From Bilabrum cf. latius (lineage: Eukaryota): 64,000 nucleotides of DNA. This document shows positions 776 through 54,832 of this stretch, piece by piece (position 1 is the stretch's first letter; each line of letters opens with the position of its first letter). The translations under genes were made by a program, and so were the position numbers. Location of the stretch: positions 1,116,001-1,180,000 of the forward strand of contig OZ237743.1 of the NCBI GenBank assembly GCA_965178125.1, read 5' to 3'. A model generated the notes under the pieces. The model worked only from the letters and a program-made list of their open reading frames with translations, ran no database searches and had not been told where the DNA came from.

Positions 776-1700
776 TCAGTACTTGAAGAAGGACTGCACC
801 AGTGCCTCAAGGTACTTTGCGATTTCGCCCGATCCAATCTTGCTGGCCCCGTGCACCCTCTCCACAAACTTGATGGGCACCTCCGCGACCTTGTTCCCGT
901 CGTTGATGGCCTTGACCATGGCCTGCATCTAGAAGGCGTAGCCCGCGCTGAAGTTCTCCGCCAAAATGTCCTCGAGAACCTTCTTCCGGTATAGACGGAA
1001 GGACCCCGTCAGGTCGCTCACCCCCGGCTGCAGCAGCAGCGTGGCCAGGAAATTCGCCACCCGGCTGGTGAGCTTGCGCATGAACGGCCACCCGGCCACC
1101 CCGCCGCCGTGCCTGTAGCGAGTGCCCGTCACGATGTCGAAGTCGCCCTCCTTCTGCTTCTTGATAAAGTTGGGGATTTCATTCGGCTGCGAGGGGGCGG
1201 AAGGGCGGGGTATCGAACCGGGTGGTGCACCAGTGGAGTTTATGGTGAGCCGCGGTCGGCATCGAGGGATTCATCCGTCTCACGTGGTGGGACAGGTCGC
1301 CATCCATGATAAAAACTAGCTCTCCGGTGCACCAAGGCAAGCCATCAGGATCCATTTTTGTCAGTGCATCCTTGTAGGCACTCCCAAGACCCATTTTGCC
1401 GGGCCGTTCGAGCACCTTTACCTTGCCTGGAAAATCTGCAGCTATGGCACGGGCAATTTCTCGAGTCTTATCCTTCCCATTATCTTCCACAATAATAACC
1501 TCCCAAGCATCCTCATCGCTGCACGCCAGCAAGACAGTGCAGTAGGCAGGAAATGCATGGCACGGCAACGTGTGCTGATCGCAAATAATTGAATTGGAGT
1601 CCTCTCACATAGATTCGAACGCCTCCATGATCATCCCGATGCATAGGGGTAGGTTTTTCTCTTCTTCATACACTGGCAGAACGATCGAGTATTTTGCCAT
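776..1700 (-). CDS. DPM1: Dolichol-phosphate mannosyltransferase catalytic subunit (GT2); 3 exons (1700-1609, 1518-1284, 1186-776); one in-frame TAG at 931-929
   Basis: [70 protein letters not shown][TAG]MQAMVKA (homologs GYVFQMEM), [19 protein letters not shown] introns restore the frame; ends TGA. Confidence 0.96.
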
Positions 1701-1853
1701 ACTGAAACTTGTTTTATCGGCCTCAATTTTTGCTGGACCCAATTCTGTTCGTCACACCTGTGCTGCGCGGCGCCTTGCGGAACTATTTACATTCCTGGGA
1801 GATTTCGGGACGAAATTCAGTTTGGACAATAGAAGCTGACTACTAAGCGAAGC
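1701..1853. promoter_or_regulatory. Short divergent (bidirectional) promoter region between DPM1 and the Snf7 gene
   Basis: Two start codons face apart across 153 bp. Confidence 0.55.
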
Positions 1854-52400: not shown

Positions 52401-54832
52401 CAGGCTCTCGTACTGCGTGGTTGTCGCGAAACTACGACCGTTCACAGAGATAGTCAGGTCGCTTCCAAAGAAGCTCTGCAATTTGTCCGTATCTAGCGTG
52501 GCTGATGCCACCAACACGGCAGGCCTGTAGCGCATTGCCGCATCAGCCGCACCAGCGGCCGTGGCAGCGGCCTCGTCTACTGGCCGGACTTTCAGGGCCT
52601 CCTTGAGCATGCCCAGGAGTGCATCGCACTGCACTCCCCGCTCGTGCACCTCATCCACCATGATCAAGCCGAAGTCAGACATAGGCGGCAGGTCCCCATC
52701 GACGCCACCCTCCTCTCCTCCGCTGGCTAGCAGCTTGCCTGCCATGTGCAGGGCAGTGCCCTCCGTGGTAAACACGATGACGGTCTCCTCAGACACGCTG
52801 ACTGTAGTCTGACCCTTGCTCTCCAGCACCAGCCCCACCCTGCCACCGACCTTGCCCTCGCCCATCTCCCTTGCCACACGGTCTGCGAGCATGCGGGCGG
52901 CACTGGCGCTCGGCTCCGTGACCAGCATGCGATTGCCCCTGTGCCTCGACACGATGCCGTACTGCTGCAGGATCTGGGGGATCTGGGTGGACTTGCCACT
53001 GCCGGTGCGGCCCGTGACCATGGCCACTGGATTGATCTATCCACCGCTCGTCCTTGCGCACATGATCTTGGAGCACGCATCAACGACCTCAGCCTCCTGG
53101 TCGAAGATGCGGAGGCTTCGCACGAAAGACCGAATCCTCTCCTGCAGTCGTCGCACGAGAGCTGCGACCAGGTGTACCCGCGCGTCTCGCGTGGGCACAG
53201 GAGGAGATACTCCGGCCCTGAGTGCCGTTTGCCTCGCCCTGATTTGCTTCTCGGAGAGCCCGACCGGCACACGCGCCACGTAATCCCAGGCAATGGCAGC
53301 ATCGTGGACGTCAGCAACCATCCGCTCGAACAACAAGATGGAACGGTACTTGGACTCATCCAGGAGCGCATCGACGTTGCGCCGCATCTGGTCGGCGAAC
53401 ATAACTGCGTCGCTGGACAGATCCTCGCCGTTTGCAGACACTTCCAGCGCGCATCTTGCCTCTTGGGACTGCCTCTAAATTCGGCCCAGAACGTTGGTCT
53501 TGGCTGCGTCGATCTCTCTGGAGACCATCTGATTGACCAGCTCGACCGATCGCAAAGCCAATACGGCGCGCGACCCACCAATAGCGCTCTATGCGCCCTG
53601 TCCGTCAGCCTCAAGTGCTAGTTCATCAGCGCCTGCACCTGACGCTGGTGATCTAAACACGCGGGCACTAGCAGGCGACTCTACTGCGTCAGCATCGGGC
53701 TCCTCCCTTTCGCAGTCGCAGGCCCAAGCACCATCCACGTCCCCGCCCTCGTCAGCTGCAAGGATCTCAGCACGGATCGAGTCGATCTTCGATTCCATCA
53801 ATTCCAAGATTCGTTCGTATTGTTCAGCGTCTGCTGGCTTCTGGTCAGCCGAACGAGCCGCGTCCTCACACCAGGCAGAGACGCCAATCTCGCCGTAGCC
53901 AATAGCGCTGCCCTTAACTTGCCTGTCCCGACTAGCGACCGCTGCGGCCAAAAACTCAGACACATCACAAGTCGGAAGCAGCAGTGATTCCTTCAGACCG
54001 TTGCGTTCAGCCAGCGATAGATATCGGCTTCCCAAGCTGCCACGCGTAAGGTGAGCAAGCTCGATGTTGTGAGGAGGGGCGAGGTTCGGCTCTCCGATCA
54101 GTCGAATTTCCAGCCTACGGCCAAACTCATGAGTCCGCTTGATCATATCGAACCGATGATGGATAGAGTTCTTGTTGGCCACGACTTCGACGTACAGACC
54201 GCGGTGTAGAGCGTCCTCGACCACATTCGGAAAGGTTTGCTTGGTGTCTCGCAGGTATCCGTGTCTATTTCCATCGCCTGCGCGGTGAATATGCCTCATC
54301 ATAGTCCAAACGTATGGGATGATCACGAAGGATGCATTCTAATCGTGAAAATACCAGCGCTCTTACCTGTGCAAAGGATGAGAGTGTATCGAGTCATGGA
54401 CCTCGGATCTCGAGCTTTTCCTTGCTACACTTGCTCTCGTGCATGTGATATAGCTTGCTCTAGCATTCCACTCATTTTCTCGGCTTTAGTTCTTGCGTCG
54501 GCATCGACTCGGACCTCGTGCCTCGTAGATTGCCTGGTCTCGACCTCAACAGAAGGACAACAGGGTAGTTGCTCCAATTGGCGTTTCAGAATCGCTGCCC
54601 TTTCATCATTGGATTCTGAGCACTAAAAATGAAAGCACTTGCCGCCATCGCTTTCGAATATCTCTCTCCCACGGAGGACTTCGTCGACGAAGCGGCTGGG
54701 ATCCAACTGATAGCCTGCTTGTTGCACACCAATCGAGATGTTGGACCAATCCACGACCACTGCGACCCTCTACTTGGTCACATCATCATAATCTCCTACA
54801 GAAATTTGTCTTCCGAGCTTGCTGAACGACAT
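46434..54832 (-). CDS. NYN(PIN-like) nuclease - DEAH/RHA RNA helicase - RBR-type Cys-rich (IBR/RING) fusion protein (~2770 aa); 2 exons (54832-54367, 54277-46434); 20 in-frame TAG codons
   Basis: NYN: VAVVVDWSNISIG, TLILCTGDGN (across the intron), ALHRGLYVEVVA. Helicase: GRTGSGKST, DEVH, SAT, FLPG, QREGRTGR, [TAG]IHPKS. C-terminus: RCPSEQC...C..WCLRCKDKLH..SC and CANPDC...CATCKDCDANFCTQC. Eleven track ORFs share one frame; ends TGA. Confidence 0.88.

Follow-up and report, generated by a model that had tools for sequence, protein, structure and literature searches.

Does the protist genome sampled in a 64,000-nucleotide stretch of contig OZ237743.1 (positions 1,116,001 to 1,180,000, forward strand; assembly GCA_965178125.1, Bilabrum cf. 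latius) read UAG as glutamine, and do UAA and UGA keep their ordinary roles there? The question arose when an inspection of the letters alone (hereafter the sequence-only reading) reported that reading frames in this stretch, the window, are interrupted by TAG codons and become continuous once these are read through. GC content in the window is 55-70% from position 1 to about 55.5 kb and 23-33% from about 57.7 kb to the end, with DNA of intermediate GC between. The GC-rich part encodes proteins of eukaryotic type (PCMT, DPM1, Snf7/CHMP, GH28, and a DEAH helicase) together with several very long low-complexity proteins, and the AT-rich end carries a virus-like element. We consider it very probable that the GC-rich DNA belongs to the nucleus of a unicellular eukaryote that reads UAG as glutamine, in which UGA ends the genes seen and UAA is not a sense codon. 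At the sequence level, the assignment of TAG as a sense codon for glutamine is supported by (i) the residues tallied opposite TAG in two genes of the host and one of the element, (ii) the complete lack of in-frame TAA and TGA, and (iii) spliced contigs that contain TAG.

TAG read-through and codon counts

Frame lengths under each code bore out the claim that frames are broken at TAG and joined by read-through. Under the standard code the longest frame in positions 1-55000 is 765 amino acids (aa), and it stays at 765 aa when either TAA or TGA is taken as sense; with TAG as sense, the longest frames reach 2915, 2642, 1727, 1162, and 965 aa. Surrogate sequences (n = 100) from a first-order Markov model trained on 5-kb blocks, with local dinucleotide content kept, gave a longest TAG-sense frame of 495 aa in the median and 804 aa at the maximum. 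The joining of frames by TAG read-through is far beyond chance. Codons were also counted in ten long host frames, which run from stop to stop and thereby take in stretches of 5′ leader and a small number of in-frame introns, so that the counts are approximate: the 12,813 codons comprised 74 TAG, no TAA, and no TGA, and the two off-frames of the same DNA held 82-90 TAG, 27-31 TAA, and 169-244 TGA. Since the in-frame TAG count is similar to that of the off-frames, TAG is not avoided in frame; TAA and TGA are excluded. The host frames use CAA and CAG at 132:366, and TAG makes up 12.9% of their glutamine codons. The genes and frames on which the analysis draws are as follows.

776-1604, minus strand: DPM1 (dolichol-phosphate mannosyltransferase), at least two exons (frames 776-1270 and 1179-1604), in-frame TAG at 929-931, stop TGA at 776-778.
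2220-2906, plus strand: last exon frame of a Snf7/CHMP-family gene (PF03357, E 2.5e-21), stop TGA.
3133-4113, minus strand: protein-L-isoaspartate O-methyltransferase (PCMT; PF01135, E 3.2e-52), no TAG, stop TGA.
11066-16249, minus strand: low-complexity frame of 1727 aa, 13 TAG, stop TGA.
28265-31753, plus strand: frame of 1162 aa related to a PF17167-bearing protein, 11 TAG, stop TGA.
31891-40638, minus strand: low-complexity frame of 2915 aa, 11 TAG, stop TGA.
41047-43332, plus strand: conserved protein whose family has no Pfam model, its core spanning residues 440-662, 6 TAG.
44327-45871, plus strand: GH28 polygalacturonase-like protein (PF00295, E 1.8e-68), with exon 44327-45420 (4 TAG), intron 45421-45684, and exon 45685-45871, stop TGA at 45869-45871.
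46434-54832, minus strand: DEAH-type helicase with a C-terminal IBR domain, with exon 54832-54366 (3 TAG), intron 54365-54277, and exon 54276-46434 (17 TAG), stop TGA.

The sequence-only reading had counted 13, 10, and 17 TAGs over 5.1, 8.4, and 7.8 kb. A stop-to-stop recount gave 13 (11066-16249), 11 (31891-40638), and 18 (46434-54362), and the two sets of figures agree when the recount leaves out TAGs that precede the start or fall within the 54277-54365 intron. Four sites that it had singled out were all located: GYAF-TAG-M of DPM1 at 929-931 (minus strand); RRVVLS-TAG-Y at 42409-42411 (plus strand); a TAG at 36577-36579 after CAA CAA CAG CAG CAG CAG; and three consecutive TAGs at 13217-13225 after GAG GAA GAA GAG GAG. 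From their contexts, the TAG that closes the six-glutamine run at 36577 suits glutamine, and the three TAGs that follow five glutamate codons at 13217-13225 would suit either glutamine or glutamate.

The residue encoded by TAG

For the homology searches TAG was translated as X, so that the alignments carry no lean towards glutamine. DPM1 returned 1059 homologues, and in the best 120 of these the TAG column is Q in 120/120, within the context Y-V-F-Q-M-E and with flanks that are themselves nearly invariant (Y 120/120, F 120/120, and M 118/120). The protein encoded at 41047-43332, which has no PDB match, returned 484 homologues in an exhaustive search, the best 150 of which were aligned; at its codon TAG455 (42409-42411), in the motif R-[IV]-V-L-S-Q-Y-L, Q is found in 104/146. 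The claim that TAG falls on conserved glutamine positions therefore held at both sites. TAG505 of the same protein lies in a variable column (A 16, E 15, and L 13 of 73), and the remaining four TAGs are outside the conserved core. Summed over the three host columns (73-146 homologues), log-odds were +6.2 for Q, −2.3 for R, −2.5 for E, −2.9 for L, and −9.4 for S.

A second and larger set of columns comes from the virus-like element, of which two features matter here.

57762-64000, no strand assigned: AT-rich (23-33% GC) virus-like element, running past the window edge.
58896-61673, plus strand: Prim-Pol/PriCT-2/helicase protein of 925 aa (the primase), 20 in-frame TAG, stop TAA.

The primase has 302 homologues, mostly full length, and its columns were tallied over the best 120 of them. 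Summed log-odds at 17 TAG columns were +7.9 for Q, −7.1 for E, −10.1 for K, −12.8 for S, and −25.5 for L, so that Q is the sole residue with a positive sum in the element as in the host columns. One of the TAG columns is Q in 120/120 and another in 64/120. Calibration against the primase's own residues gave the same answer: the profile of the TAG columns is nearest to that of the protein's CAA/CAG columns (Kullback-Leibler divergence 0.10, vs 0.20 for E and 0.22 for K), and the frequency of Q is 0.138 in TAG columns, 0.198 in CAA/CAG columns, and 0.022 elsewhere.

Other sites were less informative. Pfam scores were compared after each of ten residues (Q, E, K, S, L, Y, W, N, A, and R) was put in place of TAG. 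The GH28 scores spanned 228.2-233.1 bits, with Q, E, K, S, N, A, and R within 231.1-233.1 and Q, E, K, S, and A less than 1 bit apart, and the Pfam GT2 model ends before the TAG of DPM1, which hence gives no discrimination. In PDB alignments the GH28 TAGs fall on variable columns, except for a WW-TAG that stands opposite WWN or WWQ; with its TAG columns variable, the GH28-type evidence adduced by the sequence-only reading turned out to be weak. The PDB alignments of the helicase end one residue before its TAG 442, and the single TAG of the Snf7/CHMP frame (codon 22) lies upstream of the Pfam match.

Several of these results weigh against glutamine, and bear on whether the residue is a different one (for example Glu, Lys, Arg, Leu, or Ser). 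In three primase TAG columns a residue other than Q prevails (R in 99/119, D in 77/119, and D in 67/118), and several favor D, E, K, or R; only two of the host TAG columns are strongly conserved, the third being variable with A, E, and L commonest; the GH28 Pfam score is 232.4 bits with Q and marginally higher, 233.1 bits, with K or S, so that polar residues are not separated; only one PDB alignment extends to helicase TAG 924, and it has Leu there; and P0001, a relative of the 28265-31753 frame at 48% identity, has Q at 1/7 aligned TAG columns, with Q at 11/24 of that frame's ordinary Q positions. The EEEEE-TAG-TAG-TAG-EG run would also suit Glu. Yet Q is invariant in two columns, one each in DPM1 and the primase, and prevails in a third; every other residue lies at least 8 log-odds units below Q in the host genes and at least 15 below in the element; and calibration against the query's own residue columns selects Q. 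We regard another residue as very unlikely.

Two sets of relatives provide side observations. The 28265-31753 frame has two homologues, and residues ~533-560 and ~690-740 of its open reading frame (ORF), where some of the TAGs lie, are missing from both; from the alignment these two extra stretches are probably in-frame introns. P0243 and P0244, which are 82-84% identical to the N-terminal third of the 41047-43332 protein, have an indel at the sole TAG that they cover. They are 254-260 aa long, and the full-length window protein exceeds 700 aa. Judging from these lengths, the source organisms may share the code, standard gene callers having ended their genes at TAG; the short length could also reflect contig ends.

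Gene ends and the status of TAA and TGA

No modeled gene had been seen to end in TAG, and this stood: 0 of 16 host gene ends are TAG. All 16 are TGA (13 long GC-rich frames together with DPM1, the spliced GH28 gene, and Snf7), which is a small sample. If TAA also meant glutamine, and were used with the bias seen between CAA and CAG, ~27 in-frame TAA would be expected; none was observed, which indicates that TAA is not reassigned to glutamine. Reading TAA through in addition to TAG left 12 of 14 long GC-rich frames unchanged. Counting against UAA as a working terminator, TAA is found at none of the 16 host ends, an outcome that base composition alone gives with P 0.12-0.16. The ORFs of the element end in TAA in 4/6 cases and in TGA in 2/6. 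The proposal that UAA and UGA remain stops thus stood in part: neither is read through and UGA ends every host gene examined, and that UAA terminates host genes is inferred from the missing in-frame TAA and from element ORFs ending in TAA.

These gene ends also bear on whether TAG has two meanings set by context, glutamine inside genes and stop at some ends. Codes in which a codon is stop or sense by context are reported for Condylostoma, karyorelict ciliates, and UAA in Blastocrithidia (PMC4967479; 10.1101/2022.04.12.488043), and just 16 gene ends were available to us. Against such a code, none of the 16 is TAG, in-frame TAG is not depleted relative to the off-frames, and two TAGs have a real stop no more than 60 codons away (codon 2582 of 2642 in the helicase; codon 1697 of 1727 in the low-complexity frame). 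A dual meaning for TAG is in our judgment unlikely.

Sequencing runs and spliced contigs

The helicase stretch is present in six runs from three studies, and no record describes any of these runs as RNA. Contigs of four runs from the three studies were compared with positions 44-64 kb of the window, parts of which lack contig cover in some runs, and showed no differences from the window over the listed pieces. One of the four, X5, has three joints that are missing from the others: 45420>45685 (GT..AG; end of the GH28 gene, plus strand), 54276>54366 (CT..AC; helicase gene, minus strand), and 56120>56212 (GT..AG). The GH28 frame spliced at the first joint continues to the TGA at 45869, and the helicase frame is open across the second into an upstream exon that starts at 54832 and holds three further TAGs. 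The X5 pieces start 9 bases before the GH28 start codon (44318-44327) and end 166 bases past the helicase stop, and X5 has no depth on 58-64 kb; its edge 5′ of GH28 suggests very short 5′ leaders. Nineteen TAGs are kept unchanged in X5: 12/17 in helicase exon 2, 3/3 in exon 1, and 4/4 in GH28. X5 is probably derived from transcripts. A point on the other side is that the run is not recorded as RNA and is annotated 'probably DNA', in which case it would not show that mRNA retains TAG. Even then, X5 independently confirms the TAG bases.

The same contigs address the idea that the TAGs are untranslated, being errors, pseudogene lesions, or sites edited to CAG in mRNA. Such an idea draws on the RNA status of X5 being inferred and not recorded, and on the many false stop codons described in assembled integrated viruses by Bellas et al. 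(PMC10120064). Spliced joints and unchanged TAGs in X5 argue against sequencing error or editing; moreover, TAG alone is affected and never TAA or TGA, the same bases appear in runs from three studies, and 10-20 lesions per gene are incompatible with open frames of 2600-2900 aa. Untranslated TAGs are therefore extremely improbable, and we retain the assignment of TAG to glutamine.

The virus-like element at the AT-rich end

The element shares the recoding. Besides the primase-helicase it holds ORFs of 256 and 173 aa, a small ORF, the gene of a DUF5872 protein, and an ORF cut by the window edge. Its 1838 codons include 32 TAG, 11 CAG, 25 CAA, no TAA, and no TGA; TAG is thus its commonest glutamine codon (47%). 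Pfam recognized only two families, the Prim-Pol/PriCT-2 helicase and the DUF5872 protein, and the cut ORF has an NSLWGKL motif that we take to be polymerase-B-like. An alignment-based scan of viral contigs detected 69 related loci, mostly on contigs of ~20-26 kb, and a single-protein scan of viral contigs found no relatives. In 41 related contigs, those whose matches cover most of the primase gene (GC 23-43%), the gene holds no in-frame TAG, TAA, or TGA, vs 20 TAG here, which makes the recoding specific to the element in the window. Ten ORFs of one relative, L010, were compared with Pfam: GT2 and DNA methylase were recognized and no capsid gene was. On the evidence of its codons, the element appears to be translated by host machinery and adapted to the host code, and by analogy such use of TAG would be expected for a virus or mobile element long resident in a host in which TAG encodes glutamine.

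The passage from GC-rich to AT-rich DNA is marked by repeats.

54958-55569, no strand assigned: repeat of ~600 bp, with loose ends at 54958 and 55569 in X1, X4, and X5 and other flanks at further places in these runs.
55767-55844 and 58591-58668, no strand assigned: 78-nt direct repeat, 85% identical, bracketing a mid-GC block of ~2.75 kb.

The ~600-bp repeat separates the helicase gene from the element. Since no Logan contig spans 55008-55863, the evidence for the GC/AT junction is the assembly of the window itself. Contigs of X1 include both a form that skips the mid-GC block (55659>58615) and, in one contig, a head-to-tail form (58667>55863), and the third X5 joint, 56120>56212, lies inside the block, which may be a second mobile insertion or a duplication within the element. 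The word depth of X1 contigs, which is not copy number, is ~1100 on 58008-64000 vs ~40-90 on 44001-54672 (~20-30×), a contrast that would fit an element present in many copies or in free form.

Identity of the host and other features

Introns of the GT..AG type and the genes for DPM1, Snf7, PCMT, and the DEAH helicase upheld the view that this is the nuclear genome of a protist. The same evidence bears on whether the GC-rich DNA instead comes from a large virus, likewise GC-rich, that supplies a suppressor tRNA of its own. High GC and introns occur in some giant viruses, and many ORFs in the window lack a known family. Nevertheless, the genes named are housekeeping genes of cellular type, and DPM1 lies among cellular eukaryotes in a tree, so that we consider a viral source highly improbable and continue with a nuclear one.

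The DPM1 tree comprised 53 of 120 listed homologues (the named ones and the 15 best unnamed) and the window sequence. The latter is on a long branch, on the same side of a 95%-supported split as Cafeteria, Blastocystis, and oomycetes; green algae, plants, fungi, amoebozoans, and animals are on the opposite side. The sequence of this one short gene, on its long branch, gives a hint of a stramenopile-like host. A green-algal (Scotinosphaera-type) identity had been entertained on account of the plant-like GH28, whose best PDB matches are plant polygalacturonases, and was dropped on the residue tally and the DPM1 tree.

Beyond the genes listed above, positions 5302-6279 (plus strand) and 9248-10198 (minus strand) are inverted, near-identical copies encoding a cysteine-rich protein of ~320 aa with no TAG and no Pfam family; the protein of the second copy found no usable match in a search of the protein atlas. 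A tRNA scan and an Rfam scan of the 64-kb window returned no tRNA genes and no Rfam families.

Proposed mechanism and significance

By analogy with described cases (PMC5304391, PMC11687900), the host would carry a tRNA-Gln whose anticodon, CUA, differs by one base from that of the ordinary tRNA-Gln(CUG); this tRNA would pair with UAG and not with UAA owing to the C:A mismatch. Its eRF1 would be altered so as no longer to compete at UAG while keeping UAA and UGA, and the virus-like element would be read by the same machinery, with codon use adapted to TAG as glutamine. To be set against this proposal, the decoding tRNA and eRF1 are unseen, neither gene lying within the 64-kb window.

A code in which UAG alone means glutamine is already described, and PMC11687900 reports it from more lineages than the sequence-only reading had listed. 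What may be new is the lineage, which is GC-rich, TGA-terminating, and weakly stramenopile-like. A full-text literature search that did not extend to supplements found no report of UAG as glutamine in a GC-rich or stramenopile organism. We put forward tentatively, as a possibility somewhat short of an even bet, that the window represents an independent, undescribed origin of the UAG-only glutamine code in a GC-rich, UGA-terminating, non-ciliate, possibly stramenopile protist, together with a co-adapted element.

Nuclear codes that split UAG from UAA are rare, with about half a dozen lineages reported (PMC11687900), and they bear on how a release factor that recognizes three stops lets go of one. 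If the proposed origin is correct, the compositional setting would be opposite to that of known cases, for which UAA is reported as the main terminator; a code change in a GC-rich, UGA-ending genome would be independent of a UAA-dominant setting and would offer a useful test of codon-capture vs ambiguous-intermediate models. Host and element would likewise form a natural pair for the study of a code change that isolates a host and of a virus that crosses the barrier, and the element would join those of Streblomastix as a second case in which a small DNA virus follows the code of its host. In practical terms, standard gene callers would fragment the genes of an organism in which TAG encodes glutamine, and a shared deviant code is a marker for linking viral contigs to their hosts.

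Comparison with known genetic codes

Codes in which UAA and UAG both mean glutamine (NCBI table 6) occur in many ciliates, hexamitin diplomonads, Streblomastix, and some ulvophyte algae. The window resembles them in the change of a stop codon to glutamine and differs in TAA, which is found at 0 of 12,813 codons vs ~27 expected.

Codes that reassign UAG to glutamine with UAA as a stop are closer, and PMC11687900 names Iotanema spirale, Protocruzia tuzeti, Hartmannula sinica, and Trochilia petrani as examples. For Iotanema, Panek et al. 2017 (PMC5304391) describe UAG as glutamine and predict a mechanism that combines a tRNA-Gln(CUA) with the eRF1 substitution T32G in the GTS motif. Like Iotanema, the window comes from a non-ciliate protist in which UAG is glutamine and UAA is not sense; unlike it, the dominant stop being reported there as UAA, all host gene ends here are UGA and the DNA is 55-70% GC, and nothing in the DPM1 tree points to a metamonad. 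In the ciliates with this code (NCBI table 15), PMC11687900 reports that 93.5-100% of C-terminal alignments end at UAA and that UAG makes up 18.5-31.8% of glutamine codons. The window shares with Hartmannula, Trochilia, and Protocruzia the three-codon pattern and the wide use of the reassigned codon, whereas its host stop is TGA and its host UAG share 12.9%; it also differs from ciliates in having long genes in a long GC-rich contig.

In other lineages UAG is uncoupled from UAA, as here, and takes a different meaning: leucine in the rhizarian exLh and in phyllopharyngean metagenome-assembled genomes from TARA, and serine in the green alga Scotinosphaera (PMC11687900). The host log-odds in the window (Leu −2.9, Ser −9.4, Gln +6.2) set it apart from both, and its DPM1, unlike what a Scotinosphaera-type host would lead one to expect, does not group with green algae.

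For the element, the nearest parallel is the set of endogenous viral elements of Streblomastix strix, which Bellas et al. 2023 (PMC10120064) report to use the host code with TAA and TAG as glutamine. In both, a small DNA virus has the deviant code of its protist host; in the window, TAG alone is recoded, the primase-helicase and not a capsid gene was compared, and integration, to which a mis-join is the alternative, rests on one assembly. Bacteriophages recoded with TAG as glutamine ('genetic code 15', crAss-like; PMC9523058) show the same codon change in a virus. The code of those phages is reported to differ from that of the bacterial host, whereas the element in the window and its host have one code.

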